From NCBI GenBank assembly GCA_041737385.1, contig JBGSRU010000002.1, positions 269,437 through 333,436 on the forward strand: a DNA stretch of 64,000 bases. The letters run 5' to 3'. This stretch comes from Candidatus Saccharimonadales bacterium. Lineage in GTDB: Bacteria > Patescibacteriota > Saccharimonadia > Saccharimonadales > SZUA-47. The notes under the pieces were generated by a model. That model was not told the origin of the DNA and ran no database searches. It saw only the letters and a program-made list of their open reading frames with translations. Numbering within the stretch: the stretch's first letter is position 1; each line of letters begins with the position of its first letter. Below, one piece after another: positions 14,688 through 62,774 of this stretch. The position numbers and the translations under genes are program-made.

Positions 14688-14801
14688 GTATAGATGTTAG
14701 CATGCAGAGAAAATACTGACTTTACTTTTAGACGATTTTTTCTGATTAGCGCCAGCCGTATATATTTTGTGAATGGGTTAAACAGATATAGAATATAGTT
14801 A

Positions 14802-19489: not shown

Positions 19490-19491
19490 AA

Positions 19492-23346: not shown

Positions 23347-23347
23347 G

Positions 23348-24454: not shown

Positions 24455-24456
24455 AT

Positions 24457-24948: not shown

Positions 24949-24957
24949 ACTTATATA

Positions 24958-26088: not shown

Positions 26089-26297
26089 AATCTCCCTTAA
26101 CATCTAAGTTTGGTGTAGGTAACATCTGTAAATACGATTCTTAGCTAATGCAGATTGCCTTAAATAATTCGCTTTCGTAGCAACTACTACCAATAAGAAT
26201 TATTTAGGGCGAGATGGACAGATAAGATTTGTATTTATCTGGGCTTATTTTACACAAAGCTTAGATTAATAGTAACGTAAATATATTGTGGTGTACA

Positions 26298-27248
26298 ATG
26301 ACGATAAATATGAAAAATCAATCAAAAATTCAGTTCAGCGGTCAGACAAACTTCTATCAAGGCAAGGTACGCGATGTCTACACGCTGGATAGTGGACATA
26401 TCGTCATGGTTGCGAGCAACAGACTTTCAGCATTTGATGTTGTACTACCTAAACCAATCCCGTTTAAAGGCCAAGTGCTTACGCAGCTCGCCACATATTT
26501 TTTGCGCGAGACGGCAACTGTTGCTGAAAACTGGCTGATCGATACACCACACCCGTGCGTCAGTGTTGGCTACGCGTGCACCCCATATCCGCTTGAAATA
26601 GTAGTACGTAATTGTCTCGTCGGTCATGCGTGGCGAACCTACAAGTCAGGTGAACGCAGGCTATGTGGTGTGACGCTCCCGGATGGGATGAAAGAATACG
26701 ACCGTTTTGATCCGATCATCACGCCAGCTACTAAAGCAACTTCTGGCCACGACGAAGACATTAGCTACGAAGAAATTCTAGAACGCAAACTAGTTAGTAA
26801 ATCTGAGCTAGATATAATGTATGCAACTGCTCTAAGGCTTTTTGCAAAAGGCCAAGAAATGGCAAACGAGCGGGGTTTGTTCTTGGCCGACACAAAATAC
26901 GAATTCGGAGAGAGAAATGGAAAGATCCTCGTCATTGATGAAATTCACACTCCAGACTCGTCCAGATACTTTGATCTTGATAGCTACGAAGCATTTATAT
27001 CAGGCAATTCAGACTCAGAACCGAAACATCTCTCGAAAGAATTTGTGCGTGAATGGCTGATGGAGCAGGGCTTTAGCGGCCAAGAAGGCCAAAAGATCCC
27101 AGATCTAACTGACGATTTCATCGAATCAATTTCAGAAAGATATATAGATCTCTATGAAAAAATAACTAGCAGAACTTTCATCAAATCATCTGTCACGAAC
27201 GAAAAAGACATCGAAACAGTTGTCAGCGAAGCTATAAGGAATCTTTAA
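26298..27248 (+). CDS. purC: Phosphoribosylaminoimidazole-succinocarboxamide (SAICAR) synthase, long form
   Basis: GKVRDVY, NRLSAFD, LADTKYEFG and IDEIHTPDSSRY motifs. The start is ambiguous (ATG 26298 or 26310; the listed 26286 is a TTG). Confidence 0.85.
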   Translation: MTINMKNQSKIQFSGQTNFYQGKVRDVYTLDSGHIVMVASNRLSAFDVVLPKPIPFKGQVLTQLATYFLRETATVAENWLIDTPHPCVSVGYACTPYPLEIVVRNCLVGHAWRTYKSGERRLCGVTLPDGMKEYDRFDPIITPATKATSGHDEDISYEEILERKLVSKSELDIMYATALRLFAKGQEMANERGLFLADTKYEFGERNGKILVIDEIHTPDSSRYFDLDSYEAFISGNSDSEPKHLSKEFVREWLMEQGFSGQEGQKIPDLTDDFIESISERYIDLYEKITSRTFIKSSVTNEKDIETVVSEAIRNL

Positions 27249-27269
27249 CATCTGTGAGATAATTACATA

Positions 27270-28148
27270 ATGCGTAACATTGGCCTAGTCACAGACACTC
27301 TCAACCCTCTTGAAGGCGATGAACTTTTACTACTACAAGCCTTACAAGCTGATGGCGAATTTTCTGTCGATGTTGCTAGTTGGGATGATCCTTTGGTTGA
27401 TTGGAACAGATTTGGTACTTTAATCATTCGTTCTGCTTGGGATTACACCAATTCAATTGATGAGTTCGTTCACTGGACACAACATTTAGCGCGCGATGGT
27501 ATAGACCTACTCAATCCTCCGGAGGCAATTGCTTGGAATGCAAACAAGAAATATTTACTAGATCTCGCAGCATCTGGTATACCCATGCTTCCAACAGTTC
27601 TAGCAGATAAGTTATCTATTGATTCGCTAGAGATTCCGAGTAGCGAAACTGGATGGATTGTGAAGCCAACTATAGGCGCATCTTCTAAAAAAGTTCAGAA
27701 ATTTGATGCTGGAAGTGCAGACGAAACTAGAAAATACGCTACAGAACTAGTTAGTTCTAATATGGATGCGTTGATCCAGCCGTTTGCAAAAGAAATTGAA
27801 AATGGTGAAGTTTCATTTGTATTTTTTGGTGATGAATACTCGCATGCATGTATAAAAACACCTGCCAAAGGAGACTTTAGAGTACAGCATGAATATGGTG
27901 GTCGAGATAGATACTTTGACGCAACACCTGACCAAATAGCTCAAGCAAGAGCTGTTCTTGAGGCTGTTCCATATGATCTATTGTATTGTCGAGTCGATAT
28001 GGTTGAGATAGATGACAGGTTTATGCTAATGGAGCTAGAAGCGATTGAACCGTATCTTTTCTTTGGATATAACAACGCACCACAAGTTTTTTTGTCAGCC
28101 TTGAAGAAGCACATTGCTAGTTTAGAGAGTAACCAAGGCGCAAGCTAG
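27270..28148 (+). CDS. ATP-grasp fold protein of unknown specificity (RimK/glutathione-synthetase-like)
   Basis: It has the pre-ATP-grasp pattern IIRSAWDY...WNANKKYLLDL...GIPMLPT. The central region is W.VKPTIGASS. The C-terminal Mg-binding region is YCRVDMV...LMELEAIEP. It is embedded between purC and purF. Confidence 0.55.
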   Translation: MRNIGLVTDTLNPLEGDELLLLQALQADGEFSVDVASWDDPLVDWNRFGTLIIRSAWDYTNSIDEFVHWTQHLARDGIDLLNPPEAIAWNANKKYLLDLAASGIPMLPTVLADKLSIDSLEIPSSETGWIVKPTIGASSKKVQKFDAGSADETRKYATELVSSNMDALIQPFAKEIENGEVSFVFFGDEYSHACIKTPAKGDFRVQHEYGGRDRYFDATPDQIAQARAVLEAVPYDLLYCRVDMVEIDDRFMLMELEAIEPYLFFGYNNAPQVFLSALKKHIASLESNQGAS

Positions 28149-28207
28149 CTTTGCATTGATTAAGGGTTTCGTCTACAATTAGTTTTTAAGCTAGTGAGGG
28201 ATATCTT

Positions 28208-29599
28208 TTGCACTCTATTAATGAAAAGTGCGCTGTAATCGCTGTTTCTAATTCGCAAGACTTCGATGTCGCGCGCCTCGTATACCTCGGCCTCTGGGCG
28301 ATGCAACACCGTGGACAAGATAGCTCTGGAATCGCAAGCTATAACGGCAGCAAACTTCATCACCGCAAAAAACGTGGACTGGTAACGCAAGTGTACGATG
28401 AAGAATCATTAGCCTCCTTAAAAGGTCAAGCAGCAATTGGCCATAACCGCTACTCCACTTCAGGTGGCGATGACAGTTTCCTTAACCAACCGTTTACAAA
28501 TGAAGGATTAGGGTTCGCGTTTGCACATAACGGCAATCTTCCATTCACTACGAAGCTTCGAGAATACGCATTTGAACAAAAACTCACCGTAAACGGGCAT
28601 AACGATTCTGGGCTTATGGCACTAGCACTTGCTAACGAGCTAAAAAATAATGGTGGATCAATAGAAAAAGCCGTTCGAAGTTGTTGGCCACTGTTCGAAG
28701 GAGCTTTTTGTTGCGCTGGCTTATTAGAAAAAAACGTTTTCGCGTTTCGAGATGGATACGGCATACGACCGCTCAGTCTCGGTGAGACAACTCATGGCTA
28801 CGTCGTTGCATCAGAAACCGCAGCGCTTGACGCAATTGGGGCAACATATGTGAGAGACATAAAGCCGGGTGAGCTCGTCGTAATCAATAAAAAAGAAATT
28901 CAATCTTTCCAGATAGTAGAGGGCACCGAAATGCTTGATGCATTTGAATTCGTCTATCTCGCTCGTCCTGATAGTAAACTCGCAGGTAAAAGTATATTCA
29001 TGATCAGAAAAGATGCAGGAAGATTACTTGCCAAAAACTCTCCAGCAGAAGCAGATATTGTGCTTGCTGCACCGGATTCAGGTACCCCAGCTGCAGTTGG
29101 CTACTCTGAGGAGTCGGGCATCCCAATGGGCCACGGACTTATTAAAAACCGATATATCGGACGAACATTTATTGAGCCAGAAAAAATCAGGAAGAGTTCT
29201 GTCGAGCTAAAATTCAATGTCATACCTGAAGTCATTGAAGGGAAGCGAATAGTGTTGGTTGATGATTCGATAGTGCGTGGCAATACCTTAAAGCACCTGA
29301 CTAAACTGCTCAAAAAAAACGGCGCAAAAGAAGTACACCTCCGTATCGCTTCACCTCCTGTGAAATATCCAGATTTTTATGGCATAGACACGCCCAACGG
29401 GTTTGATCTACTTGCGCATTCGTACACTGTAGAAGAAAGCAGAGAGCGTCTCGACGCCGATAGTCTTGAATATCTAAGCGTTGGTGATCTAGTAAAGAGT
29501 ACTGGTCTTAGCCGCGGTAAATTATGTTTATCGAGCTTCACTGGAGAATACCCAATTCCTGTTCCTGACCAAAAACAACAAAGAGAAAGTAACGAATAG
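28208..29599 (+). CDS. purF: Amidophosphoribosyltransferase
   Basis: Ntn-type Cys after a short propeptide (MHSINEK-CAVIAV), HRGQDSSG, the PRT motif IVLVDDSIVRGNT, and a TTG start with a GAGGGA RBS. Confidence 0.9.
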   Translation: MHSINEKCAVIAVSNSQDFDVARLVYLGLWAMQHRGQDSSGIASYNGSKLHHRKKRGLVTQVYDEESLASLKGQAAIGHNRYSTSGGDDSFLNQPFTNEGLGFAFAHNGNLPFTTKLREYAFEQKLTVNGHNDSGLMALALANELKNNGGSIEKAVRSCWPLFEGAFCCAGLLEKNVFAFRDGYGIRPLSLGETTHGYVVASETAALDAIGATYVRDIKPGELVVINKKEIQSFQIVEGTEMLDAFEFVYLARPDSKLAGKSIFMIRKDAGRLLAKNSPAEADIVLAAPDSGTPAAVGYSEESGIPMGHGLIKNRYIGRTFIEPEKIRKSSVELKFNVIPEVIEGKRIVLVDDSIVRGNTLKHLTKLLKKNGAKEVHLRIASPPVKYPDFYGIDTPNGFDLLAHSYTVEESRERLDADSLEYLSVGDLVKSTGLSRGKLCLSSFTGEYPIPVPDQKQQRESNE

Positions 29600-49460: not shown

Positions 49461-50046
49461 TCCTTAAATCATTCCAATTCGTTCTAGGCAATAATGCCTC
49501 TGATCCATTTCTACAAAGCACACATTCGTCAGGAGAATACTTACTGGTCTTCATGGATGCAGCCGATAGTATTCTACGGCGATTGAGCGTTTCTTGACCG
49601 GTCATATTTGCAAGACAGTATACGAGATCGACTACTTTGATGCCCTTTGACTCTAATTCCTGAATTGTAGCTAAGGCAGCACCTCCGCCGTACATATCAT
49701 CTGCGACCACAAGTGCCGTTGATCCATCAGGAATACTGAATGTTGTCACGTATTTTTCTGATGGCAGAGTGTACGCAAACTTAGCACCTAAGAGCTTCGC
49801 TGCTTCAAAAGCGATAGGAATGCTGTAGGGAGCATAGCCAACAATATAATCAATATTGTCTGAGAGTTCAGGCAATAAAGTTGATTTGATAATTTCAGAT
49901 ATAAGCTGCGGTTCTTGAGTTATCACATCCGAATTAAAGTATGCATCTACATACTTGCCAGACATGGATGTTTTGACGTGAGGACCAACTCCACCGTAGC
50001 ACCAAAACGCTCCTTTTTCTTCAAGAACTTTTTTCCAATTAGTCAT
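49453..50046 (-). CDS. Phosphoribosyltransferase (orotate-PRT-like)
   Basis: PRPP motif ALVVADDMYGGGAA and the upstream IVGYAPYSIPIA pattern. An 8-nt overlap couples it to the downstream kinase gene. Confidence 0.6.
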   Translation of the reverse strand: MTNWKKVLEEKGAFWCYGGVGPHVKTSMSGKYVDAYFNSDVITQEPQLISEIIKSTLLPELSDNIDYIVGYAPYSIPIAFEAAKLLGAKFAYTLPSEKYVTTFSIPDGSTALVVADDMYGGGAALATIQELESKGIKVVDLVYCLANMTGQETLNRRRILSAASMKTSKYSPDECVLCRNGSEALLPRTNWNDLRND

Positions 50047-50449
50047 TTTTTCGTCTTTCTTGCTATGGATTATGACACAAAGAACAATCTGAGTACATTA
50101 CGGCTTGTTTGGCACACAAGAATAATTGTTAGACTGTAGAGTTAAATCACTTCACCTTTGTTATTCGCTTCATGCTGGATTAACTAATTTATTGACTATT
50201 TTTCTAAAGTTAAAATATTTTAGCTTCATTAGAGTATAATAAACTCGGCGATATAGTCACTTTCATAAATTTAGACTATAGGCTTTTAACTCAAGCAATC
50301 ACACTTCGGTCACTGTGCGCTTGCAATCCATATTTAGTTTCCCAGTATTGGCTATCGTGAGTAACGGCTCTTACATAGTTTTAGCTCGGTAACTACTAAA
50401 CCAAAACCCGTTATATATCACTTAATATCTCTTTTAGGTTTAGTTTAAT

Positions 50450-50734
50450 ATGGATCCAACTCAAGTAATAAATCAGCGTGTTGAAGTGGCTGTCTTTTAC
50501 AGAAAAGATTGCGACATTAGTATGTTGGCGTACCCGGTTAAAATGAAATATAAAAACCAAGAAATACTTTTTACTCGTTTAGGTCTCAGGCACGAAACAG
50601 CTAAAGGCAAAAGAATGATTCACGTGTTTGATATGTCAGATGGTGTAAATGATTATAGATTAGAATTTGATGCACAAGGCTTAACCTGGACACTCGTTGC
50701 GATTATCCCGGGCGTCTATGAGGCAGGGAAATGA
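50450..50734 (+). CDS. 94-aa hypothetical protein translationally coupled to the Y-family polymerase
   Basis: Its stop overlaps the polymerase start (ATGA, 50731-50734). It shows no S24 peptidase (UmuD) or YolD motif. Confidence 0.5.
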   Translation: MDPTQVINQRVEVAVFYRKDCDISMLAYPVKMKYKNQEILFTRLGLRHETAKGKRMIHVFDMSDGVNDYRLEFDAQGLTWTLVAIIPGVYEAGK

Positions 50735-51987
50735 ACTACGATTTAAACCAAGACGAACCAAGAATAATGTGGGTAGATTTGAATAGTGCATTTGCAATGG
50801 CAGAACAGCAAGCCCATCCATCACTGCGCAACAAACCACTAGGCGTGACGAACAGACTGTCAAAAGAATGCTGCGTCATTGCAGCCTCATATGAAGCGAA
50901 GGCTCTTGGAATAAAGGTGGGGGTTAGACGCTCCGAAGCGAAAGCACTCTGTCCCGACTTCATCATGCTAGAGACTGATCCACCAAAATACCATCACGTA
51001 TACAAAAAACTAGCGGCAATAATGAAAAGTTACTGTCCAGATGTAAAGATGAAAAGTATAGATGAAGGAATTATGGACTTTAGAAAGATGGACAAAACTT
51101 ACACAACAGAGCGCCTGATTGCTATCGGCTACGAAATGAAAGAGCGCGTCAAAACTGAAATTGGAGACTATATAAAAATAAACGTAGGAATCGCGCCTAA
51201 TAGATTCTTGGCTAAAACAGCAGCCGGTTTGCACAAGCCGGACGGGCTTGACGTCATAGACCATAGGAACCTAATAAAAGTCTACAGGTCGTTAGAACTA
51301 CAAGATTTAAACGGCATAGCTGATGGCTATGGAAGCAGGTTAAGATCGTTTGGCATTGCAACACCAATGCATTTTCTTAATGCTCGTGAAGACCTACTCC
51401 GCAAACAAGTTTTCAAAAGTATAAACGGAATGCACTGGTATAAGAGACTTAGGGGCTATGAAGTGGACGACTACGAAACCAACATAAGCATGGTTGGCCG
51501 TCAGTGGGTAGTGAAGAGTCCAAGCAACAACGAAGACTACCTGCGTTCATGTCTGCATTTCCTAGCTGAAACAACTGGCATGAAACTACGTTACAGAAAT
51601 GTCGAAGCTAGAGGCGTTGCAGTCTGGCTGGCCTTCCAGTCTGGGGAAGTATTCTCAGACAAAAAAATGTACAAAACTGGAGTTTTTACTAACGAAGATA
51701 TTTGGCTTCGTGTATCGAAAATATTTAACAACCGCCCCAAGCATATGGTGGTCAGAACCATGGGGCTATATTTATATAAACTTGAACCGTCTAGTCGCAG
51801 TCAAATTGGCTTATTTCACAATACTGAAAAATCACAATACATTACCGAGGCAATGGATGAGATAAACGATTTCTATGGTTCATTCACCGTGTTTTCAGGC
51901 GACTCACTTGAAGGAACCAAGCACGTGAAACAGAAAATTCCATTCGGCGGTACAGAGTATTTCGATTTATTATTAAAGAGACAATAA
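50731..51987 (+). CDS. Y-family DNA polymerase (UmuC-like translesion polymerase)
   Basis: MWVDLNSAFAMAEQQ...LRNKPLGV resembles the UmuC N-terminus (D-x-N-x-F-Y-A-S-x-E). The catalytic SIDEG motif is retained, and little-finger-size C-terminal domains are present. Confidence 0.8.
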   Translation: MNYDLNQDEPRIMWVDLNSAFAMAEQQAHPSLRNKPLGVTNRLSKECCVIAASYEAKALGIKVGVRRSEAKALCPDFIMLETDPPKYHHVYKKLAAIMKSYCPDVKMKSIDEGIMDFRKMDKTYTTERLIAIGYEMKERVKTEIGDYIKINVGIAPNRFLAKTAAGLHKPDGLDVIDHRNLIKVYRSLELQDLNGIADGYGSRLRSFGIATPMHFLNAREDLLRKQVFKSINGMHWYKRLRGYEVDDYETNISMVGRQWVVKSPSNNEDYLRSCLHFLAETTGMKLRYRNVEARGVAVWLAFQSGEVFSDKKMYKTGVFTNEDIWLRVSKIFNNRPKHMVVRTMGLYLYKLEPSSRSQIGLFHNTEKSQYITEAMDEINDFYGSFTVFSGDSLEGTKHVKQKIPFGGTEYFDLLLKRQ

Positions 51988-51993
51988 TTTATT

Positions 51994-52255
51994 GTGGCTT
52001 TTCGCGCCACACTAAAGTGGGTTACTTCGTCCCACACCCTCGACATACTTTCTTGTGTTTACTAGAAAGTATGCAAAGAAACAACAGCGGGCGATAAAAG
52101 CGCGACACACTCAAAACAACTTTGCACTGTGCCTGCGGGACTCCCGTTGGTCGGTCAAAAATGTTTCTTGAAGTTACATATTTTTGACTTGTCCTCGGCA
52201 ATGACTCAGCGCGAAGTTGCTCCAAGTGATCGGTTTTACCGCTTCATGCTGACTC
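51994..52255. repeat. Structured intergenic repeat, copy C (H0, H1, H2, H3 and one ATGCTG module)
   Basis: H0 is GTGGC-N7-GCCAC (51994-52010). H1 is GTGGG-N9-CCCAC (52017-52035). H2 is CATACTTTC-N12-GAAAGTATG (52044-52073). H3 is GTCAAAAAT-N17-ATTTTTGAC (52154-52188). ATGCTG occurs at 52246. Confidence 0.8.
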
Positions 52256-52284
52256 AATACAAGCTTGAGAAGTATTGACAGATG

Positions 52285-52293
52285 TGATATAAT
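52285..52293 (+). promoter_or_regulatory. Extended -10 promoter (TGaTATAAT) for the leader transcript
   Basis: TGATATAAT at 52285-52293, with ATG 52301 lying 7 nt downstream. The nearby TTGACA (52275-52280) is only 7 nt away and so is not a functional -35. Confidence 0.5.
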
Positions 52294-52300
52294 ATATCTA

Positions 52301-52399
52301 ATGAATAAAATCAGTATTTCAGTTTCAACAGAACACCTTTTGCAGCAAGCTGCGGTATTTTTTGGTTTTATCTCTTTTATCCAGGCGGTAGCTCCTTAG
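52301..52399 (+). CDS. Candidate 32-aa Phe-rich leader peptide (MNKISISVSTEHLLQQAAVFFGFISFIQAVAP)
   Basis: Leaderless ATG. Four TTT Phe codons fall within seven codons (52358-52378), and the ORF end overlaps the antiterminator segment GGCGGTAGC (52384-52392). Confidence 0.45.
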   Translation: MNKISISVSTEHLLQQAAVFFGFISFIQAVAP

Positions 52400-52431
52400 A
52401 ACGTATTAAACGACCATAAATAATTACAAAA

Positions 52432-52457
52432 GCGACCGCCAGAAAGCGGTCGTTTTT
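52432..52457 (+). terminator. Leader terminator of the PheRS-like operon (attenuator)
   Basis: CGACCGC-cagaaa-GCGGTCG followed by TTTTT, 14 nt upstream of the GGAGA RBS of the 52485 ORF. Its 5' arm is complementary to 52384-52392. Confidence 0.6.
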
Positions 52458-52484
52458 AATTAAATATTAATTGGAGAAATTACT

Positions 52485-52676
52485 ATGAGTGAAATACAAA
52501 AATATATTGGAGAAGAGTTAGATAAACCAGAAACCCTAAGCAAACAGTTAGATAAACAAGATGATGGGCTTGAAGTTGAAGCCAGTGTAGCGCCTGTAAC
52601 CGAACTTGGAGCTGGTGAAATAATAGCCTTATCACTAGATGATATTGTTCCGCGTAGCTGGAAAAGCTGGGAATAG
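52485..52676 (+). CDS. 63-aa acidic protein, function unknown
   Basis: The GGAGA RBS lies 8 nt upstream, and the stop lies 2 nt before the next start. It is very acidic and has a C-terminal ALSLDDIVPRSWKSWE. Confidence 0.5.
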   Translation: MSEIQKYIGEELDKPETLSKQLDKQDDGLEVEASVAPVTELGAGEIIALSLDDIVPRSWKSWE

Positions 52677-52678
52677 TC

Positions 52679-53818
52679 ATGAAAATGAATATTAAGCCAC
52701 TAACAAAGGCTCAGGCAGATTACTACCTGAGCCTCCCAGATCTTACAAAAGAAGAGAGCAATCATGCGGTTGGCTTGCTGTACAGAAAAATCAAAAAGAA
52801 AATAGAATCAACACATCCAGATAGTGAAATTATGATCTATCGGGATAATCAGATCATTTCTATTGAAGATAACTATGAAAACTTGCTGATTCCAAAATAC
52901 AATATTAGTCGTTCATCTACCTACACACATTATGTAGATGGGGGTACGTTGCTACGAACTCACGCATCATCAGCAATACCTGGCGCTATGCGTGAGCTTG
53001 CAAAACGCAGCGACTGGAATGACGTCGTGATTCTCGTTCCAGGACTCGTATACAGGCGTGATGTGGCAGATAAGAAACATGTCGGACAGATTCACATGCT
53101 AGATGTTTGGCGTGTTGTAAGAACAGCCGGCAGGCCAGAAGTTACTCACGATACACTTCTAGGTGCAGTTAAAGATATAGCAGCAACAGCTGCACCTGGG
53201 TGGATGCTACGCATTGAGGATTCACCTCATCCATACACTGACGGCGGCATTGAGGTTAATGCCGTCAACAAAGATGATGGACGAGATATAGAAATACTAG
53301 AGTGTGGACTCATCAAAAAAGAAGTCTTAAAAATCAATGGCCTAGACCCACGGGTCTATTCAGGATGGGCGCTCGGTATGGGGCTCGACAGACTCGTTAT
53401 GACGCTGAAGGATTTACCAGATATACGTTATTTGCGTTCAGGTAACCCTAAAATAGCTAAACAAATGCTAAACCTTAATACGTATTTGGAAGTGTCTAGT
53501 CAGCCTGCAATACAGCGCGATATGTCCTATTCAGTACCTGAAAGTTACGTTGAAGAGGATATATCTCAAGACATAATGTCTGCAATGGGTGATGATATAG
53601 CAGCTCTTGAAGAAGTAGAGATATTAAACGAAACCAGCTACGAAGACTTGCCGGATACAGCACGTAAAAATCTTGGCATACAATCAGACCAAAAGAATGT
53701 GCTAGTTCGTGTGACGTTGAGGCATCTAGAAAAAACGCTAACTAGTAAAGAGGCCAACATAATCTATGACAATATCTACCCACAAATTAACTACGGGGCA
53801 GCGGGGTACGCATCATGA
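52679..53818 (+). CDS. Single-chain PheRS-like class II aminoacyl-tRNA synthetase homolog (alpha-type catalytic core plus a C-terminal FDX-ACB-like domain)
   Basis: LLRTHASSAIPG aligns with LLRTHTS. Motif 2 is GLVYRRDVADKKHVGQIHMLDV. Motif 3 is GWALGMGLDRLVMTLKDLPDIRYL. The C-terminal PAIQRDMSYSVP...VLVRVTLRHLEKTLTSKEANIIY resembles the ferredoxin-fold anticodon-binding domain. Confidence 0.7.
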   Translation: MKMNIKPLTKAQADYYLSLPDLTKEESNHAVGLLYRKIKKKIESTHPDSEIMIYRDNQIISIEDNYENLLIPKYNISRSSTYTHYVDGGTLLRTHASSAIPGAMRELAKRSDWNDVVILVPGLVYRRDVADKKHVGQIHMLDVWRVVRTAGRPEVTHDTLLGAVKDIAATAAPGWMLRIEDSPHPYTDGGIEVNAVNKDDGRDIEILECGLIKKEVLKINGLDPRVYSGWALGMGLDRLVMTLKDLPDIRYLRSGNPKIAKQMLNLNTYLEVSSQPAIQRDMSYSVPESYVEEDISQDIMSAMGDDIAALEEVEILNETSYEDLPDTARKNLGIQSDQKNVLVRVTLRHLEKTLTSKEANIIYDNIYPQINYGAAGYAS

Positions 53819-53863
53819 TTATTTCGACAACATCAACTAACTTATATTTGATAGACTAAACAT

Positions 53864-54883
53864 ATGAAACAAGAAAAAATTATCAGAACAGTTTGTGTAT
53901 TTACAAAAGAACCCAATGATTCGTCCATTGATAGATTAGACTTAATTGTTCAAAAACTCGAGCAAAACGGCTATATTGTGCAAACAAAACGAGTCGCATC
54001 GACAGTTGATTATCTTAATGAGCTTGTTGCGCTTACGCAGAAAGGCATTGAATACGTGAGTGTTGGCGATGTAACTACTGAACAAGCACTAGAAATACTG
54101 CCTACTTTCTATGAAAACAAGGCACTTACATTCAATATAGAGCTAGCAAAAGAAGAAATATCTCAGAAGCATGTAGATATACTCCACAAAATCATAGAAA
54201 ACAACGCTTCGAAAACATTTAGCTTCACCTATACCTTCAACAACGCAGCTTCCAGCCCATATTTTCCATCTGCTCGCTTCGTAGAAGATGGTTTTGCCAT
54301 AGGACTGCAGCCAACCGATCTGTCTGTCGGCTGTGATACGCTCGAAGAATGGCTAGAAAACATGCATAAAACATGGCAAGAGATTACCGATCTATTTGCC
54401 AACGAACCAGATTTTCTAGGTATTGATAGTTCTATAGCCCCGCTACTTGACGGAAATAGCAGTTTTATAAACTTCATAAAACGGCTTGGGCTTACATTCG
54501 AACAAACAGTAACTACGGATATGTACACGACAATAACGAAGTTTCTAAAAGAACAGAACCCTAAGCCTATAGGTCTATGCGGCATGATGCTCCCGTGTTT
54601 AGAGGATTTTGAATTAACTACAGAATACGAGGCAGGAAACTTTTCTATTGAAAGAAATGTTTTCTTGTCATTACATTCAGGGCTAGGTATAGATACCTAT
54701 CCCATTGGCGTCGATGAAAAGCCAGAGCGTGTAATAGAAATACTAAAGCTAATCCAGTCGCTGTCAAATAAGTACAATAAGCCACTTTCTGCTCGTTTTG
54801 TTTCAGACGGCAAAGCTAAAATCGGTGAAAAATCTGATTTTCAAAATCCTTATCTCAAAGATTGCGTGATTCGTCCGCTTTAG
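53864..54883 (+). CDS. DUF711 / UPF0210-family-like protein (shortened, 339 aa)
   Basis: Collinear similarity, judged from memory, to UPF0210 proteins. The matching segments are IIRTVCVF, QTKRVA, SSPYFPSARF, LGIDSSIAPL, GLCGMMLPCLED and GLGIDTYPIGVDEKPERV. Confidence 0.55.
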   Translation: MKQEKIIRTVCVFTKEPNDSSIDRLDLIVQKLEQNGYIVQTKRVASTVDYLNELVALTQKGIEYVSVGDVTTEQALEILPTFYENKALTFNIELAKEEISQKHVDILHKIIENNASKTFSFTYTFNNAASSPYFPSARFVEDGFAIGLQPTDLSVGCDTLEEWLENMHKTWQEITDLFANEPDFLGIDSSIAPLLDGNSSFINFIKRLGLTFEQTVTTDMYTTITKFLKEQNPKPIGLCGMMLPCLEDFELTTEYEAGNFSIERNVFLSLHSGLGIDTYPIGVDEKPERVIEILKLIQSLSNKYNKPLSARFVSDGKAKIGEKSDFQNPYLKDCVIRPL

Positions 54884-55470: not shown

Positions 55471-57699
55471 ATGAATTTAAGCGATAACGAAAAACGAGAT
55501 GTAATTAAATATCTAGAGGCTGGCAAGCCCCTGCCAGAGAAATATCGTTTTTTGTTATTTGATGACGCTCGCGAAGTTGAATTACTGTGGAATGGCAAGA
55601 CTAATGAAGTTACAAATACCGTCCTACCATTCCAAGTTATTGAACAGATTGATGAGCCACGGAGTGACGACAAAATTGGACTACAATCAACATTGTTTGA
55701 CGATAGCGGTAGACAGTTAACAGGTTGGACTAACAAGTTAATATGGGGCGATAACAAGCTAATTTTGTCATCCCTGAGTAATGGCCCATTTCGTAAAGAA
55801 ATTGAAGCTCAAGGCGGATTAAAGCTGATATATATTGACCCGCCTTTTGATGTTGGTGCAGATTTTTCAATGGATATATCAATTGGAGAAAGCCAAGACG
55901 AACAAAGTTTTACAAAGAAACCGTCCGTCATTGAAGAGATTGCATATCGTGACACTTGGGGTAAGGGTGCTGACAGCTTCATATCAATGGTGTATGAACG
56001 CCTAAAATTAATGCATGATTTACTGGCTGAAAACGGTAGTATATATGTTCATTGTGACTGGAGAGTAAATGGTTACATGCGTCTAGTGCTAGACGAAATC
56101 TTTGGTAAAGATAATTTTTTGAATGAGATTTTATGGAAAAGAAGAACAAACACAGTAAAAGCTATATCAAATAAATTTCAAATCAATACAGATACAATCT
56201 TCGTTTATACGAAGTCAAAGGGGAGCTATCAGTTTAATCTTCAGTATGGAGAGTATCCGAAAGAATATCTAGATAGGTTTAAGTACGAAGATGAAAAAGG
56301 TAAATTCAGGTGGCAAGTAATGGCTACATACTCAGAGGCAAGGCTAGCTTCTCTACAAAGAGAAGACAAAGTTAGATTTTCAAAGGGTGCAAAATATCCC
56401 GAGTTCAAGCAGTATGTATACGAATTAAAAGGTAAGCCCATAGAGAATGTTTGGGATGATTTAAACATGATAAATGCTATGGGAGATGAAAGACTCGGCT
56501 ATGCTACCCAGAAGCCTGAAGTGCTACTTGAAAGAATTATCAAGGCGTCGTCAAATGAGGGTGACTTAGTCGCTGACTTCTTCTGTGGTTCAGGAACAAC
56601 CATGGCTGTAGCTGAAAAATTAAATAGAAAATGGATAGGCTCGGACCTAGGCAAGTTTGGCGTCCATACTTCTCGGAAGCGAATGATTGATGTACAGCGT
56701 AAGTTAAAAAAAGACGGTGTTAACTTCAGAGCTTTTGAAATATTAAATGTCGGTAGATATGAACGAGATAGCTACTTAAATGTTAATGACGACTTGCGTG
56801 TCGAAGAAAAGGCCCAGCAAGCTATAAGAAAAGAAAAAGAGTTTGTTAAGCTAATTATTACAGCATACAAGGCAGAGCCTGTTGAGTCGTTTGTAAACAT
56901 TGTTGGGAAGAAAAGAGATAGGTTAGTAGCAGTTGGTCCAATTAGTACGCCTGTTTCGTCTAAGCAAGTGGACGATATAGTAGCTGAGTGTAAAGACAAA
57001 GGCATTACAAAGGTTGACATACTTGGGTTTGACTACGAAATGGGATTAGATTTTCATGCATACGCCAGTCAAGGCATAGATGTTGCATTTAGGATAATAC
57101 CAAGGGAAGTGTTTGATAAAAAAGCTGTGGAGCGAGGACATGTTAAGTTCTACGATGTTGCTTTTATTGAAGCTAAACCAACCGTTAAAGGTCCGATGAA
57201 TAAGAAAGAAGTATCAATAGAATTGACCGACTTCTCCGTTTTTTATAATCAAGATGACTCCGGCGAAGTTGCAGAGGCATTACGCCCCGGCGGAGAAAAG
57301 GTCATTGTAGAAAACGGCCAAGTAGTAAAAGTTTCAAAAGATAAAGAGAGCGATATTATCTCAAAAGAAGTACTAACCAAAAAATGGAGCGACTGGGTTG
57401 ACTATTGGGCTGTGGACTTTGACTTTTCAAGCCGAAAAGAAATGATTAGAGTACCAAAAACTCATGGAGATAATCTATTTGAAAAAGGTAAAGTTCAGGA
57501 ATTGCTTGAGTTTGAAGATGTGTGGACTGGAGACTACATATTTGATAACGAATGGCAGAGTTTTAGGACAAAAAAGAACAGAGAGCTTGAACTGACCTCA
57601 GCGGCAAAAGAAGTTGGGCGAGGCAAATATAAAGTAGCAATCAAAGTTGTAGACATATTTGGTAATGACACTACTCGGGTTATTGAGGTAGAGGTATAG
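55471..57699 (+). CDS. mod: Type III restriction-modification DNA methyltransferase (Mod, N6-adenine/N4-cytosine beta class)
   Basis: Motif IV LIYIDPPFD precedes motif I DFFCGSGTTMAVAEKLNRKWIGSDL. The N-terminal EKYRFLLF...LIWGDNKL region is typical of type III Mod proteins. It lies directly upstream of res. Confidence 0.85.
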   Translation: MNLSDNEKRDVIKYLEAGKPLPEKYRFLLFDDAREVELLWNGKTNEVTNTVLPFQVIEQIDEPRSDDKIGLQSTLFDDSGRQLTGWTNKLIWGDNKLILSSLSNGPFRKEIEAQGGLKLIYIDPPFDVGADFSMDISIGESQDEQSFTKKPSVIEEIAYRDTWGKGADSFISMVYERLKLMHDLLAENGSIYVHCDWRVNGYMRLVLDEIFGKDNFLNEILWKRRTNTVKAISNKFQINTDTIFVYTKSKGSYQFNLQYGEYPKEYLDRFKYEDEKGKFRWQVMATYSEARLASLQREDKVRFSKGAKYPEFKQYVYELKGKPIENVWDDLNMINAMGDERLGYATQKPEVLLERIIKASSNEGDLVADFFCGSGTTMAVAEKLNRKWIGSDLGKFGVHTSRKRMIDVQRKLKKDGVNFRAFEILNVGRYERDSYLNVNDDLRVEEKAQQAIRKEKEFVKLIITAYKAEPVESFVNIVGKKRDRLVAVGPISTPVSSKQVDDIVAECKDKGITKVDILGFDYEMGLDFHAYASQGIDVAFRIIPREVFDKKAVERGHVKFYDVAFIEAKPTVKGPMNKKEVSIELTDFSVFYNQDDSGEVAEALRPGGEKVIVENGQVVKVSKDKESDIISKEVLTKKWSDWVDYWAVDFDFSSRKEMIRVPKTHGDNLFEKGKVQELLEFEDVWTGDYIFDNEWQSFRTKKNRELELTSAAKEVGRGKYKVAIKVVDIFGNDTTRVIEVEV

Positions 57700-57700
57700 C

Positions 57701-60391
57701 ATGGCTCTACATAAAGACTTTCCAACAGACCCTTACGCTATATTAGACCCAAGTATTCGCTGGTTTCCCGCTGATGAAGATTTGAGGGACAAGGGGCACG
57801 AGAAGCTACTCCCACCACTTGTTGCTGACTTGCGAAAAAAAGTTAAGGAATGGCGACTGCTCAATTATGAGGGTGCAAGTGATACATCTATTGCACTGCT
57901 AAACTGGTGGTTCAAAGAAGACCATATTCAATACAATCAAGACGGCTCTTCGTACATTTTTAGATACTACTTTGCACAGCGTGAAGCACTTGAAACAGTT
58001 GTCTGGCTTTACGAAGTTGCTAAGGTAAAAGATAAGTACGACCTCATACGATACAACTCCACTGGTGTGCTAAGTGCAGGCATGTTTACAGAGGAATGGC
58101 TTCGGTTCGTAATCAAGATGGCTACTGGTGCTGGAAAGACAAAAGTCATGAGCCTTGTGCTCGCATGGGCTTACTTTCACAAAAAATATGAGGAAGACTC
58201 ACAACTGTCAAAGAACTTCCTCTTAATTGCCCCCAATGTGATTGTGTTTGAGCGTATAAAGAATGACTTTGAGGGATTGAAGATATTCCATGAAGACCCT
58301 GTACTTCCTGATAATGGCTATCGTGGTCAGAATTGGCAGGATGACTTCCAACTCACGCTTCACTTACAAGACAATCTACGGAACATTTCTGACACGGGCA
58401 ACATCTTCCTTACTAACATACATCGTGTGTTCGAGTCGGATGTTAAGAACGCCAGTGCTGATGACGAAGACTCATCGACCTATTTCTTAGGCGACAAGCC
58501 TGTGACTAAAACAAATGACTCAACAGTTGACCTAGGAATGATAGTTAGAGATATTGATGAGTTGATTGTTATCAATGATGAAGCTCATCATATATGGGAC
58601 GAAAAGTTAGCATGGGCAAAGTCAATTCAAGATATAGACAACCAGTTAAAGCAAAAGGGCTCAGGGTTATCACTACAGCTTGATGTTACGGCTACACCAA
58701 AGAAGCGAGACGGTTCAATCTTTGTACAGACAATTAGTGACTACCCTCTTGTCGAGGCAATACACCAACAGATTGTTAAAAACCCTGTTGTGCCTGACGC
58801 CGCAAGTCGGGGTAAGTTACATGAAAACCAAAGCTCACTGTTTAGTGAAAAATATAGAGACTTTATTAACCTTGGTATTGAAGAGTGGCGTAAAACCTAC
58901 GATGAATTGAAGCCTATGGGCAAGAAGTCAATCTTGTTCATAATGACAGATGACACTAAGAACTGTGATGAAGTAGCAGAATATATCAGAACTAGCTTTG
59001 CTGATTTGCGAGACGGCGTACTAACTATTCATACCAATAAGAGTGGCGATATCTCAGAAAGCGTTTCAGGAAAGAACAAAGACGAGCTAGATATACTCCG
59101 TAAGCAAGCTAACGAGATTGATAGTTGGGAAAGCCCATTCAAAGTAATCATTTCTGTAATGATGTTGAAAGAGGGTTGGGATGTTAAGAATGTAACTACT
59201 ATTGTTGGACTAAGGCCATATGCCGCTGACTCTAAAATCTTACCCGAACAAACACTTGGTCGTGGTTTGCGTAGAATGTTCTTTGGTCGAGATGATGTAA
59301 AAGAATATGTCAGCGTAGTTGGTACGCCAGCCTTTATGGAGTTCGTGGAGTCAATCAAGGGCGAGGGCGTTATCTTAGAAAAGAAAGCCATGGGCACAGG
59401 CTCTAAGCCAATAGCACCTATGGTTGTTGAGGTAGACAGCGAAAATCCACAAAAAGATATTGAAAAGCTAGATATTGAAATACCAATCATGACTCCAAGA
59501 ATACAGCGGGAGTACAAGAACCTTTCTGACTTAGATGTATCAAAGTTTGGTAACAAAAAAGTTTCAATAAAAACATTTACTGAGCAAGAAAAGCGAGAGA
59601 TTGTTTTCAAGGATGTTGTTGGCGAAAACGAACATCACACTACTGTACTTAGTGGCGAGATAAACCCTGACTACCAAAGCGTGATTGGCTTCTTCGCACA
59701 AGCGATTATGCGAGAGCTAAGACTGTTTGGTTGCTATGACATTTTGTTTGGCAAGGTCAGAGAATTCGTGCACCAGTATATGTTTGAGAACGAAGTTGAG
59801 CTGTCTGATTTGAACATGCTCAGAAACCTATCCGAAGTTGAGTATATTCATCTGATAAAAGACTCGTTCAAAAAAGCAATCAACGAACTAACGGTTCAAG
59901 ATAGTGGCGATACCGAGATAAAGAACTATATCAAGATAAGTGAGTCACGCCCATTCGTCGTGAATGACAAGGGTTTCGTTGTACCTAAAAAGTCAGTCTT
60001 CAATAAAATTGTCGGCGATAGCGATTTTGAGCTAGTGTTTGCTGGCTTTATAGAGGGATGTGAGGATGTTATTTCGTTTACCAAGAACTTCCAAAACAAA
60101 GAAGCTAGTGCCCTGCGAATTGAGTATAAAAACTCTGAGGGCTTCATAGCTAACTACTACCCTGACTTCTTTGTAAAAACTGATAGCAAAACGGTCTATA
60201 TAATTGAAACTAAGGGTCGTGAAGAAGAAGATGACAAGCTAAAATTTGAGCGTCTAAAAAAGTGGTGTGATGATGTTAATGACCGCCAAAGCAAAATGGC
60301 CTATAATGCTCTCTACATAAAACAAGAAGAATGGAATAGAGACAGACTAAAGAGCTTCGATGAGGTTGTCCGAGTATTTGGAGATAAGTAG
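57701..60391 (+). CDS. res: Type III restriction endonuclease Res subunit (SF2 helicase plus PD-(D/E)XK nuclease)
   Basis: Walker A MATGAGKT, DEAHH, MLKEGWDV and the C-terminal YYPDFFV...YIIETKG nuclease motif. It starts 1 nt after the mod stop. Confidence 0.85.
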   Translation: MALHKDFPTDPYAILDPSIRWFPADEDLRDKGHEKLLPPLVADLRKKVKEWRLLNYEGASDTSIALLNWWFKEDHIQYNQDGSSYIFRYYFAQREALETVVWLYEVAKVKDKYDLIRYNSTGVLSAGMFTEEWLRFVIKMATGAGKTKVMSLVLAWAYFHKKYEEDSQLSKNFLLIAPNVIVFERIKNDFEGLKIFHEDPVLPDNGYRGQNWQDDFQLTLHLQDNLRNISDTGNIFLTNIHRVFESDVKNASADDEDSSTYFLGDKPVTKTNDSTVDLGMIVRDIDELIVINDEAHHIWDEKLAWAKSIQDIDNQLKQKGSGLSLQLDVTATPKKRDGSIFVQTISDYPLVEAIHQQIVKNPVVPDAASRGKLHENQSSLFSEKYRDFINLGIEEWRKTYDELKPMGKKSILFIMTDDTKNCDEVAEYIRTSFADLRDGVLTIHTNKSGDISESVSGKNKDELDILRKQANEIDSWESPFKVIISVMMLKEGWDVKNVTTIVGLRPYAADSKILPEQTLGRGLRRMFFGRDDVKEYVSVVGTPAFMEFVESIKGEGVILEKKAMGTGSKPIAPMVVEVDSENPQKDIEKLDIEIPIMTPRIQREYKNLSDLDVSKFGNKKVSIKTFTEQEKREIVFKDVVGENEHHTTVLSGEINPDYQSVIGFFAQAIMRELRLFGCYDILFGKVREFVHQYMFENEVELSDLNMLRNLSEVEYIHLIKDSFKKAINELTVQDSGDTEIKNYIKISESRPFVVNDKGFVVPKKSVFNKIVGDSDFELVFAGFIEGCEDVISFTKNFQNKEASALRIEYKNSEGFIANYYPDFFVKTDSKTVYIIETKGREEEDDKLKFERLKKWCDDVNDRQSKMAYNALYIKQEEWNRDRLKSFDEVVRVFGDK

Positions 60392-60969
60392 TGGATGACC
60401 TAGAGTTGTCCGCTAATGTATTCCACGAACAAGCTGTACAGGCTTATGTGTCCTCTAGAATGTTGCTGGCTACTACCTCGTTATTCCCAGTAGGTTTGTA
60501 TAGCGCGCATCTAGCATGTGAATGTATGTTGAAATCATTAACTGCTCAGTCAGGCTCACATCCTGTGCAGAAGCACGATTTATTAATGCTGAACACTAAC
60601 TTGCAGATAGCAATAAATGACAATGATTTATTAGGACAAGAATATATACGAATACTTACTTGGCTCAATCCATATAGTGAGCTAGGTAGGTATGGTGCTT
60701 TAGCAAGGCCACAAAATGATCCCGATAGAGTTATATCAGGACCAGTACAAGTAAGAGGTGCTGTATCATCACAACCGTCGGGTGATATGAAAGATATAGA
60801 TTTTGTTTTCACTCTGTTAAGAAGTATATCAACGGTTGAAAATGATATAATAAGTAAAATTGTTGCTGGCAAAACAGTCAGAGGCTGGAACTCATCTGTT
60901 TCCATCGAGGAAGTAGTGCTGGCGCATAACAAATATACTAATCTTCTCAATAAATCAACAGGGATCTAA
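60391..60969 (+). CDS. HEPN-domain-like protein coupled to res
   Basis: The GTG start overlaps the res TAG by 1 nt. The pattern AHLACECMLKSL...VQKHDLLML...YSELGRYG fits the HEPN helix arrangement (A.E..LK.L...H.L..L......RY). Confidence 0.5.
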   Translation: MDDLELSANVFHEQAVQAYVSSRMLLATTSLFPVGLYSAHLACECMLKSLTAQSGSHPVQKHDLLMLNTNLQIAINDNDLLGQEYIRILTWLNPYSELGRYGALARPQNDPDRVISGPVQVRGAVSSQPSGDMKDIDFVFTLLRSISTVENDIISKIVAGKTVRGWNSSVSIEEVVLAHNKYTNLLNKSTGI

Positions 60970-61008
60970 ATCACAGCTTTAATGTTTATAAATGCGATTC
61001 TTAAATAA

Positions 61009-61034
61009 AATAAGAGGCTACGCAGCCTCTTATT
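61009..61034. terminator. Bidirectional terminator hairpin between convergent genes
   Basis: AATAAGAGGCT-acgc-AGCCTCTTATT, an 11-bp stem with A/T-rich flanks on both sides. Confidence 0.55.
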
Positions 61035-61167
61035 GTTGGAAGGTGTGACCTTTCTAGCGCTGTTGGTGTTTTGAATACAATCTAAATTGCACAGGTAGCT
61101 CCTCAAGTTCTCTATAATCCAGCCACTTTTCCATTGACCCCTAACACTATACGAACACGTTGAACTT

Positions 61168-61383
61168 TTACACTGTGTGGCAGTTAGTGCAGAATGCGCA
61201 ACCATCAATCACTGCCTGACTATATCTAAGTCTGGCTTCATTAACCGCAAGTGCACAGTTAGCATGAAAGCCTAGATCTATGCGATGCTCTGGCAATGGG
61301 TACGTACACTGATTCGTATGTTGAGTATCATGAACTTCATGATGACCGTTATATTCTTGCGAGTTTAATACGTAAAATGGCAT
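61168..61383 (-). CDS. Small Cys/His-rich protein, function unknown
   Basis: 71 aa with HHEVH, C..LP, and C and C..C.H at the C-terminus, suggesting metal binding. It resembles a widespread uncharacterised small-protein family (from memory). Confidence 0.45.
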   Translation of the reverse strand: MPFYVLNSQEYNGHHEVHDTQHTNQCTYPLPEHRIDLGFHANCALAVNEARLRYSQAVIDGCAFCTNCHTV

Positions 61384-61618
61384 ATTGTCTCCTTTCTTGA
61401 TTTTACAGTCTTTTTATACCCTCGTGACTGTTTAACGATGTTTGTGTTCCAGAAGCTTTTATTCTTCGTTGTTTCTTGTTTTATATTGTATCAAAATAAT
61501 TAGACAATAACTCCTTATATTACGATTTTAAACATTGTAATATTGACATATTTGACATTGCTCGTTATACTTCCCAGCAAGCATAACGAGCAAAATTATT
61601 AAAAGACGGGCAACTATT

Positions 61619-62395
61619 ATGACTTTTCCACAAATTATTCGAAAATTAAGAGCAGATAACAGCTTAAGCCAGCAGGATCTTGCTGACTACGTTGATATTG
61701 CTCGCGCAACCTATGTTGGCTTGGAGAACGGTCGACGTGACCCGAATTTGAGCGAAATTAAGGCAATTGCCGAGTACTATCAAATATCGCCCCAGGAATT
61801 AATTGACGGGAAGTTGACTGATAAGAAGGCTCCTGCTGTAGTCATTCTCGAATCTAACACAGCCGAACTAACACAAGTTGTTAATCTCAACAAAGAAAAG
61901 TTTAGAGAAGTAGTTCTGTATATACTCAACAAAGTAGGCGCCAAACCTAATGTGGGCGAAACTGTGTTATATAAGCTATTGTACTTTATTGACTTTGATT
62001 ATTACGAGCAAAAAAATACATCTATAACGGGTATGCAGTATGTGAAAAATCACTTCGGTCCGACTCCAAGAAAGAGGGATTTTGACGCAATTATAGATGC
62101 AATGAGCGCTCAAAAAGAAATCGAATTAATCAAAACAAAATATGCAACAAAAGATCAAAAAAAGTACCTCCCAGCAAAGAGCCCTCAACTTACTAATTTG
62201 AGTGCAGATGAGATTAAGCATATCGACGAAGTACTTAGCAGATTAAGCGACAAAAACGCCACAGAGCTATCTGACCTGTCCCACAGGGATATGCCATGGA
62301 TAGCATCAGACCCAAACGAGGTTATAGATTACGACCTTGTTTTTTACCGTACACCAGTAACAGCTAGAAGTAACAGCAGCGATGATCCCCTTTGA
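61619..62395 (+). CDS. XRE-family HTH fused to a Panacea (DUF4065/SocA-like) antitoxin domain
   Basis: N-terminal IIRKLRADNSLSQQDLADYVDIARATYVGLENGRRDP HTH. The central KLLYFIDFDYYEQKNTSITGMQYVKNHFGPTP is typical of DUF4065. Confidence 0.7.
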   Translation: MTFPQIIRKLRADNSLSQQDLADYVDIARATYVGLENGRRDPNLSEIKAIAEYYQISPQELIDGKLTDKKAPAVVILESNTAELTQVVNLNKEKFREVVLYILNKVGAKPNVGETVLYKLLYFIDFDYYEQKNTSITGMQYVKNHFGPTPRKRDFDAIIDAMSAQKEIELIKTKYATKDQKKYLPAKSPQLTNLSADEIKHIDEVLSRLSDKNATELSDLSHRDMPWIASDPNEVIDYDLVFYRTPVTARSNSSDDPL

Positions 62396-62774
62396 TCAGG
62401 CACCTGAGTTTGAGAAAGAATTAAAAAAGCTTTCTAAAAAATGGCGATCTCTACCTACGGATTTAATTCGTGCCCAGAGAGTTATATCCGGTATATATGA
62501 GCCTCAGCGAGGCGTTTCTGCTTCTGAAATTAAAAGTGAGTTTTTTGCAGGCAACAATGTGACTCAGATAAAAATAGCTGATAGTTATGAAGTGGTAAAA
62601 ATGCGACTGTATTGCAAGGATCTTCGGACAGATAAAATGATTAGAATCGTGTTTATTTTTATAAAAACTCATGACCAAATTCTGCTGATTGAAATGTATG
62701 CTCACAACGATAAAAGCAGAGAAGATGATTATCGTATAGATAAATACTCCAAGAAAATCGAGACAGACATATGA
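62382..62774 (+). CDS. Putative toxin partner of the Panacea antitoxin (RelE/ParE-superfamily-like, weak)
   Basis: It overlaps the antitoxin gene by 14 nt. It is 130 aa. EFEKELKKLSKKW...RIVFIFIKTHDQILLIEMYAHNDKSRED resembles the RelE/ParE-type toxin layout. Confidence 0.45.
   Translation: MIPFDQAPEFEKELKKLSKKWRSLPTDLIRAQRVISGIYEPQRGVSASEIKSEFFAGNNVTQIKIADSYEVVKMRLYCKDLRTDKMIRIVFIFIKTHDQILLIEMYAHNDKSREDDYRIDKYSKKIETDI

Follow-up and report, generated by a model that had tools for sequence, protein, structure and literature searches.

What governs the expression of a ligase gene related to phenylalanyl-tRNA synthetase (PheRS) in a saccharibacterium, and is the short Phe-rich open reading frame (ORF) that precedes it part of the answer? 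The question is raised by a locus of Candidatus Saccharimonadales bacterium (GenBank assembly GCA_041737385.1, contig JBGSRU010000002.1), from which a stretch of 64,000 nucleotides (nt; positions 269,437 to 333,436 of the forward strand), hereafter the window, was analysed. A promoter, a 32-codon ORF with a run of Phe codons and a hairpin followed by a T tract lie in front of the ligase operon, and an initial annotation made from the sequence alone had read them as a Phe-codon leader peptide with a terminator and an antiterminator. Judging from comparative sequence analysis and RNA folding models, we consider it highly probable that the element is a ribosome-mediated leader-peptide attenuator that senses charged tRNA-Phe and controls an operon composed of a 63-amino acid (aa) ORF, the ligase SrmL and a DUF711 family gene. 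Coordinates are those of the window, and the features of the element and of the operon lie on the plus strand.

Direct reading and a promoter scan identified an extended -10 box, TGATATAAT (TGaTATAAT, 52285-52293), whose TATAAT is separated by a 17-nt spacer from a -35 box, TTGAGA (52265-52270). The two boxes give 11 of 12 matches, plus the TG, and rank as the second-best promoter match in the 20 kb scanned. From the -10 box there are seven bases (52294-52300) to the ATG at 52301, and the ORF lacks a Shine-Dalgarno sequence. The same disposition is kept in related loci, where a TTGnnn box recurs with the same spacing. Among 43 promoter-ORF candidates at related leaders, TG precedes the -10 box in 32, and the -10 box and the ATG are 7 nt apart in 27 candidates and 6 nt apart in another 6. 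In all the leader classes described below, most leaders have a TGnTAnnnT box 6-7 nt before the ATG, and the Shine-Dalgarno sequence is absent. From this spacing and from the lack of a Shine-Dalgarno sequence we infer that the leader mRNA is probably leaderless, with transcription starting at or next to ATG 52301.

The leader ORF (52301-52399; direct reading and ORF list) consists of 32 codons, MNKISISVSTEHLLQQAAVFFGFISFIQAVAP, followed by TAG (52397-52399), and the regulatory Phe codons are the TTT triplets at 52358, 52361, 52367 and 52376, that is, four in seven consecutive codons (52358-52378). Direct reading agreed with the initial annotation on the extended -10 box, its distance to the ATG, the ORF, its stop and the Phe codons, without change of a single coordinate. 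Directly before the T-rich Phe codons there is a small hairpin, TTGCAGCAAGCTGCGG (52340-52355), called terminator-like by the scan and with visible counterparts in two related loci (L073 and L048); it could be a polymerase pause site synchronising translation with transcription.

Taken by itself, the window gives modest evidence from the Phe run, since at least four Phe per seven codons are found in 2 of its 514 small ATG ORFs. The other one (14694-14798, MLACRENTDFTFRRFFLISASRIYFVNGLNRYRI) stops 3 nt before an ABC transporter gene and is probably due to chance. These weak window-only statistics, together with E values of 1.2-4 for the Rfam leader models, would fit a spurious ORF lying beside the ordinary terminator of a neighbouring gene, as would the symmetry of the hairpin, which is flanked by an A tract on its 5' side and a T tract on its 3' side. 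The hairpin (52428-52457) heads the list of terminator-like sites for 20 kb, where it is entered in the minus orientation. However, no minus-strand gene converges on it, it is separated from the end of the upstream gene by 440 nt that include a promoter, and the whole arrangement is kept in dozens of loci with differing flanking genes; a chance association is hardly credible.

Eighty-five related loci were gathered, and 56 of them, non-redundant and with enough upstream DNA, were used for counts against a background of 2180 small ORFs from other parts of these loci. Just upstream of the ligase operon, 26 of the 56 loci carry a short ORF on the plus strand with four or more Phe per seven codons, compared with 0.37% of the background ORFs; with at least three Phe per seven codons the figures are 36 of 56 and 2.9%. 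The enriched residue is Phe, while background runs are mostly of Leu, Ser or Arg. Phe accounts for 13.3% of the leader residues against 4.1% in the genes of the window, and TTY triplets in the leaders number 163 in frame 0 and 63 and 107 in the other two frames. By these counts, the recurrence of Phe leaders across related loci, which belong to independent lineages, is far beyond chance.

The leaders fall into at least four classes whose peptides are unrelated, only the Phe run and its position being kept. Class A, the commonest, ends in …FFFFGFFAA; class B, which includes the window, reads …FFGF.SFIQAVAP or …FIQAVASRTY; class C reads …NFFMTSSLGGLAGFTK and class D, MKTCSHNLFFNFILN…. A few leaders look decayed or frameshifted. 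In L005/L064 (2311-2475), the T run of L005 has two extra T's, perhaps through a homopolymer assembly error, and the first ATG is no longer in frame with the Phe codons; the leaders of L033, L034 and L051 read …FKPCFSHSFAA, and in L035 the frame is lost near the stop-codon hairpin. Variability by codon position is nearly flat in the leaders (0.74/0.90/1.01 and 1.06/1.10/1.16), whereas the ligase gene has the usual coding pattern (0.57/0.29/1.24). As the peptides are unrelated between classes and the codon positions vary evenly, selection appears to act on the codons and the RNA, not on the peptide.

These observations bear on the idea that the ORF encodes a functional hydrophobic peptide, either a substrate or precursor of the ligase or a membrane peptide, the hairpin only setting the stoichiometry of peptide and enzyme. 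In its favour, the ORF is always directly upstream of an uncharacterised ligase, it was annotated by gene callers in two loci, and the class A peptide looks conserved within its class. Nevertheless, besides the unrelated sequences and the flat variability just described, RNA pairing dictates which residues follow the Phe run (the codons for QAVA, CAGGCGGTAGC, are part of a helix considered below), the hairpins within the class A ORFs covary with amino-acid changes, and class C has just two adjacent Phe followed by a classical four-segment RNA. A functional peptide is thus quite unlikely.

The RNA of the attenuator proposed here is best seen in class B, which comprises 12 distinct leaders, including that of the window, and gives a good alignment that begins at the Phe codons and extends to the T tract. 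Segment 2 (52383-52394, AGGCGGTAGCTC), identified by alignment and covariation, is the 5' strand of the antiterminator and encodes the last codons of the leader. Segment 3 (52428-52441; folding and alignment) contains the 5' arm of the terminator (52428-52439) and the 12 nt that pair with segment 2 (52430-52441), and segment 4 (52446-52457; folding and alignment) is the 3' arm of the terminator with the T tract, GCGGTCGTTTTT. The hairpin is therefore one of 12 base pairs (bp; 52428-52439/52446-52457), followed by TTTTT and located before the ribosome binding site GGAG. Both this hairpin and the complementarity of GGCGGTAGC (52384-52392) to GCGACCGCC (52432-52440) at 8 of 9 positions had been pointed out beforehand, and were found as described. 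To them we add segment 2b (52408-52415, AAACGACC; alignment and covariation), complementary to the 3' arm of the terminator, with which it can build an 8-bp helix through GGTCGTTT (52448-52455). Segment 2b is proposed as a second antiterminator strand; neither this helix nor the -35 box had been part of the initial annotation.

All three helices are conserved. The terminator is kept in 12 of the 12 class B loci, with 92% of the alignment cells paired; the antiterminator (52383-52394/52430-52441) is paired in 89.6% of cells, compared with 27-44% when the partner is slid along, and helix 2b:4 is paired in 100%. In the clade L078-L081 four columns change jointly (G to A in segment 2, C to T in 2b, C to T in segment 3 and G to A in segment 4), and the change retains the three helices, the G-C pair of the antiterminator becoming A-U and the C-G pair of 2b:4 becoming U-A. 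The outer pairs of the antiterminator show further compensatory changes. The fold z-score of the leader is -2.9. The Phe codons also keep their place with respect to the RNA, since their first bases lie at -7, -16 and -19 to -25 nt relative to segment 2 in all in-frame class B leaders. In 8 of the 12 class B relatives the leader stop codon abuts 2b, and a ribosome terminating there would sit on 2b and on part of segment 2; in the window, such a ribosome would cover segment 2 completely and 2b over its first bases.

Folding of the RNA as it emerges from the polymerase reproduces the expected alternatives. In the window, the nascent RNA up to 52445 forms the 2:3 helix in the absence of a ribosome or with a ribosome at F20, F21 or F23, and does not form it with the ribosome at F26 or at the stop codon. 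The minimum free energy (MFE) structures of the nascent RNAs contain a 2:3 helix of 9-12 bp in all 12 class B sequences. It had been anticipated that a ribosome at the stop codon would mask the antiterminator and that an early Phe stall would leave it free; mutually exclusive structures of antiterminator and terminator, and Phe runs and covarying stems in the leaders of relatives, had been named as points to check. The computed folds agree with the two expectations and with the exclusive structures, and the alignment supplied both the Phe runs and the stems, with compensatory changes.

We propose the following model for the element. Transcription from the strong extended -10 promoter would start at or next to ATG 52301, and the 32-codon leader would be translated leaderless. 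When Phe-tRNA is scarce, the ribosome would stall at the early TTT codons (52358-52369), and segments 2 and 2b would remain free. Segment 2 would then pair with the 5' arm of the terminator, while 2b could pair with the 3' arm; the terminator would not be formed, allowing RNA polymerase to enter the operon and raising ligase expression. When Phe-tRNA is plentiful, the ribosome would reach the TAG at 52397, covering segment 2 and the start of 2b. Hairpin 52428-52457 would form and transcription would stop at the T tract, giving rise to a leader RNA of about 157 nt. Sensing of Phe-tRNA would be functionally coherent, given that the operon encodes a PheS paralog equipped with an anticodon-binding domain.

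SrmL (52679-53818; 379 aa) has a tRNA-synt_2d core and an FDX-ACB domain (Pfam). It matches NCBIfam NF051887, "PheS-related mystery ligase SrmL", with 389.3 bits (cutoff 300), and falls under the cutoffs of TIGR00468, the canonical PheRS alpha subunit pheS (88.1 vs 237 bits), and of TIGR00469, pheS_mito (131.7 vs 258 bits), so the description of the downstream gene as a non-canonical PheRS homolog was apt. Its best solved relative, the human mitochondrial PheRS, shares the two-domain layout. Homologs number more than 1000, with roughly 60-85% identity, and those that are named belong almost all to Candidatus Saccharibacteria. That SrmL is the only PheRS of the phylum was rejected: the cultivated saccharibacterium Southlakia epibionticum, which lacks SrmL, has canonical essential PheS (SEML1_0572) and PheT (SEML1_0562), with one PF01409 gene only (PMC10633639 supplement). 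SrmL is therefore an extra paralog and not the housekeeping PheRS of the phylum. A tBLASTn search restricted to the window found no second PheS-like gene there, and a literature search on SrmL or on bacterial monomeric PheRS returned nothing relevant.

Several points weigh against the proposed attenuator and its link with Phe. First, the MFE of the full-length RNA is always the terminator; therefore, antitermination must be kinetic or use a pseudoknot of 2:3 and 2b:4. The energies are -17.8 kcal/mol for the terminator, -12.7 for 2:3 and -8.0 for 2b:4, so that the two antiterminator helices together would be comparable to the terminator, but only as a pseudoknot, for which the 6-nt connector of segments 3 and 4 may be short. 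Second, a ribosome stalled at the fourth Phe codon (52376) would cover about half of segment 2. Third, an anti-antiterminator (segment 1) was searched for in class B by folding and was not found, and the classical superattenuation state is thus missing. In the MFE structure of the window's leader, the partner of the Phe run is the A-rich 5' end and not segment 2, and in class B the pairing of 2 with 2b is weak (-2.3 to -6.5 kcal/mol). The untranslated nascent RNA of this class forms the antiterminator, and hence the 1:2 helix of classical attenuators has no counterpart; folding here agrees with the caveat already attached to the initial annotation, that no segment sequesters the antiterminator in untranslated RNA. 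Without an anti-antiterminator, untranslated class B transcripts are predicted to read through. Fourth, the class B covariation comes mostly from one clade and represents few independent events, and is supportive rather than conclusive. Fifth, a clear T-tract terminator was not found in class A, the commonest class. Finally, SrmL has HPY and HMLD where the human mitochondrial PheRS has FPF and HQLE, and its H184, P185 and Y186 are invariant in 37 homologs. The FPF and HQxE motifs are the substrate-binding ones in PheRS; the amino-acid pocket of SrmL thus differs from that of PheRS, and its substrate may not be Phe.

Class C provides the complete design. Its members (L020, L024, L026, L036, L050 and L066) have FF codons and then four segments, GACCUCU / GGGGGUC / GCCCCC / GGGGGC, followed by U's, which form the 1:2, 2:3 and 3:4 helices of a textbook four-segment attenuator. 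L036 carries matching changes in all four segments (GGUCUC / GGAGGCC / GCCUCC / GGAGGC). With this full set of helices, class C favours the attenuator reading for the whole family.

The class A alignment comprised L002, L006-L010, L013, L014, L016, L017, L022, L029, L037, L039, L046, L062 and L069. In this class a conserved, covarying hairpin (UGCYGC…GCRGCA) holds the stop codon in its loop and runs into a U-rich stretch; the Shine-Dalgarno sequence is taken up in a hairpin of its own, and the Phe run contains a CUUUGG that is complementary to CCAAAG farther downstream. RNAalifold returned only the N-terminal hairpin and the stop-codon hairpin. The arrangement departs from the classical one, and control in class A may be translational or follow another logic. 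Extended to the element of the window, this would mean a translated, Phe-sensing leader with a different output, either initiation of downstream translation or a pyrBI-like arrangement in which a closely following ribosome would block the terminator and stalling would lower expression. For the window we judge this improbable: the Shine-Dalgarno sequence of its class (52473-52476) is outside any conserved helix, the T-tract terminator is strong, and the conserved competitor of the 5' arm is found exactly where the terminating ribosome sits.

Could the element work independently of translation, as a small RNA, a riboswitch, a T-box-like element or a target of protein-dependent antitermination, the T-rich run being structural? 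The run follows the terminator-like hairpin 52340-52355 and pairs with the A-rich 5' end in the MFE, and frame 2 is also rich in TTY triplets (107). Yet the ATG is fixed at 6-7 nt from the -10 box, the Phe triplets occupy its frame in four unrelated classes, and stop codons hold conserved positions relative to segments 2 and 2b. Moreover, the Phe codons are mixed with non-U codons, as in TTC ACT TTT AAC ACC TTT (L078) or TTT GCC TTT GCC TTC TTT TTT (L002). Rfam gave no T-box or riboswitch match at E <= 10 in 50000-54000, nor at E <= 1 in eight related loci. A translation-independent element is very unlikely.

Downstream of the attenuator proposed here, a GGAG ribosome binding site (52473-52476), 8 nt before ATG 52485, and a 63-codon acidic ORF (52485-52676; the two spanning 52473-52676) were found by direct reading. 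The ORF had no family match in profile searches and is kept at the same position in L073 (2807-2998) and L074. It stops 2 nt before the SrmL start, and such adjoining or overlapping of the small-ORF stop with the SrmL start suggests translational coupling. ORFs of 84-101 aa and different sequence precede SrmL in L001 (1084-1347), L077 (1410-1664) and L085 (33-338); elsewhere the small ORF is absent or of about 11 codons (L048). The third gene of the probable operon (53864-54883; DUF711 family, Pfam) would be co-transcribed with SrmL, given the 45-nt gap and the shared strand, and the DUF711 neighbour is common to the window, L073, L074 and L085. In other loci SrmL is followed by an AlaX-like protein of 245 aa with tRNA-synt_2c and tRNA_SAD domains (L078, 2310-3047; L079, 4175-4912; L080, 4600-5337; L081, 2947-3684) or by a class II synthetase with tRNA-synt_2b and HGTP_anticodon domains (L083, 1353-2710).

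The genes flanking the SrmL operon vary between loci. In the window a 94-aa ORF overlapping a Y-family polymerase with IMS domains (50450-51987) is found upstream, and the downstream flank (55471-62774) holds the mod and res genes of a Type III restriction-modification system, a gene for a HEPN protein and, at 61619-62774, two short ORFs that overlap; the neighbourhood is variable and island-like. The operon had been placed in an accessory region; this holds for the varying flanks and for the absence of the gene from Southlakia epibionticum, but not for the ligase and its leader, which are as widespread as the number of homologs given above indicates. A role in defence was dropped, PADLOC having matched only the neighbouring Type III restriction-modification genes and neither the leader peptide nor any protein of the three-gene operon, and BLASTN of 51990-52700 against plasmid and E. 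coli collections gave no match. Between the polymerase gene and the leader promoter there are three inverted repeats (51975-52001, 52044-52073 and 52154-52188, with arms of 13, 13 and 9 nt), the last of them a perfect GTCAAAAAT/ATTTTTGAC; they could be the terminator of the upstream gene or protein-binding sites. Farther away, the window carries a single-chain FGAM synthase (1294 aa), purH, a purF-like gene and glucose-6-phosphate dehydrogenase (17822-29599). Saccharibacteria are usually described as lacking nucleotide synthesis, which makes these purine genes worthy of note. The best named relatives of the purH of the window belong to Patescibacteria and Saccharimonadales, which together with the named SrmL homologs points to a saccharibacterium as the most likely source.

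If the model is correct, leader-peptide attenuation would be extended to Saccharibacteria, for which no described leader peptide or attenuator was found in the literature or in Rfam. The design would be compact, with a leaderless start, a competitor strand for each arm of the terminator and no anti-antiterminator, and predicts readthrough when the leader is not translated, as opposed to the superattenuation of the classical design. It would also provide the first functional clue for SrmL, whose expression appears tied to Phe-tRNA availability. Saccharibacteria are generally described as epibionts relying on their host for amino acids, and a ligase induced by Phe starvation may be relevant to their handling of a fluctuating supply of Phe. 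More tentatively, and with more doubt than confidence, these leaders might be the first ribosome-mediated attenuators in Patescibacteria (candidate phyla radiation, CPR), and SrmL might take part in a response to Phe-tRNA shortage, either as a starvation-induced, editing-free monomeric PheRS with the mitochondrial layout or as a tRNA-Phe-dependent ligase with an altered pocket. In practice, the leaders offer a sequence signature for finding further attenuators in CPR genomes.

Control of secondary synthetase genes is familiar from Firmicutes, where T-boxes regulate, for instance, thrZ and tyrZ of B. subtilis. There, too, a drop in the charging of a tRNA induces an additional paralog of its synthetase; the T-box, however, reads uncharged tRNA by RNA-tRNA pairing, whereas here sensing would be accomplished by ribosome stalling. 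Nearer in mechanism are the E. coli pheST and pheA attenuators (and those of trp, his, thr and leu), with which the element shares a short promoter-proximal ORF, a codon run (of Phe in pheST and pheA) and an intrinsic terminator before the structural genes. As in pheST and pheA, the antiterminator would be masked by a ribosome at the stop codon and not by one at the Phe codons, and, as in pheST, the target is a PheRS-type enzyme. The geometry of pheST, pheA and trp invoked in the initial annotation is thus present and conserved as regards promoter, leader ORF, Phe codons, terminator and antiterminator, although as an analogous and not a homologous system. In contrast with the E. coli leaders, which are led by a Shine-Dalgarno sequence, translation in the window would start leaderless; its class lacks the 1:2 anti-antiterminator and has an extra 2b:4 helix that would capture the 3' arm of the terminator. 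The host belongs to Saccharibacteria/Patescibacteria, and the target is a monomeric PheS paralog. The distance is also seen in Rfam, where the window scores 20.8 bits (E = 4) with Phe_leader (RF01859; gathering threshold 55) and 20 bits (E = 1.2) with Trp_leader (RF00513; gathering threshold 41), the best relative, L073, reaching 30.3 bits against the 41 of Trp_leader. Among gamma-proteobacteria and Streptomyces, classical attenuators have been noted before genes for aminoacyl-tRNA synthetases (PMC1262725). In mycobacteria, leaderless polycysteine short ORFs act as Cys-responsive attenuators (bioRxiv 10.1101/834739). These ORFs are likewise described as the first cistron of an operon, at the 5' end of a leaderless transcript, and as rich in codons for the sensed amino acid, the amino acid, phylum and targets being different; in the window, the intrinsic terminator is clear and its antiterminator covaries. 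Judged from its sequence conservation and modelled folds, the leader would thus represent a real, new variant of the leader-peptide attenuator.

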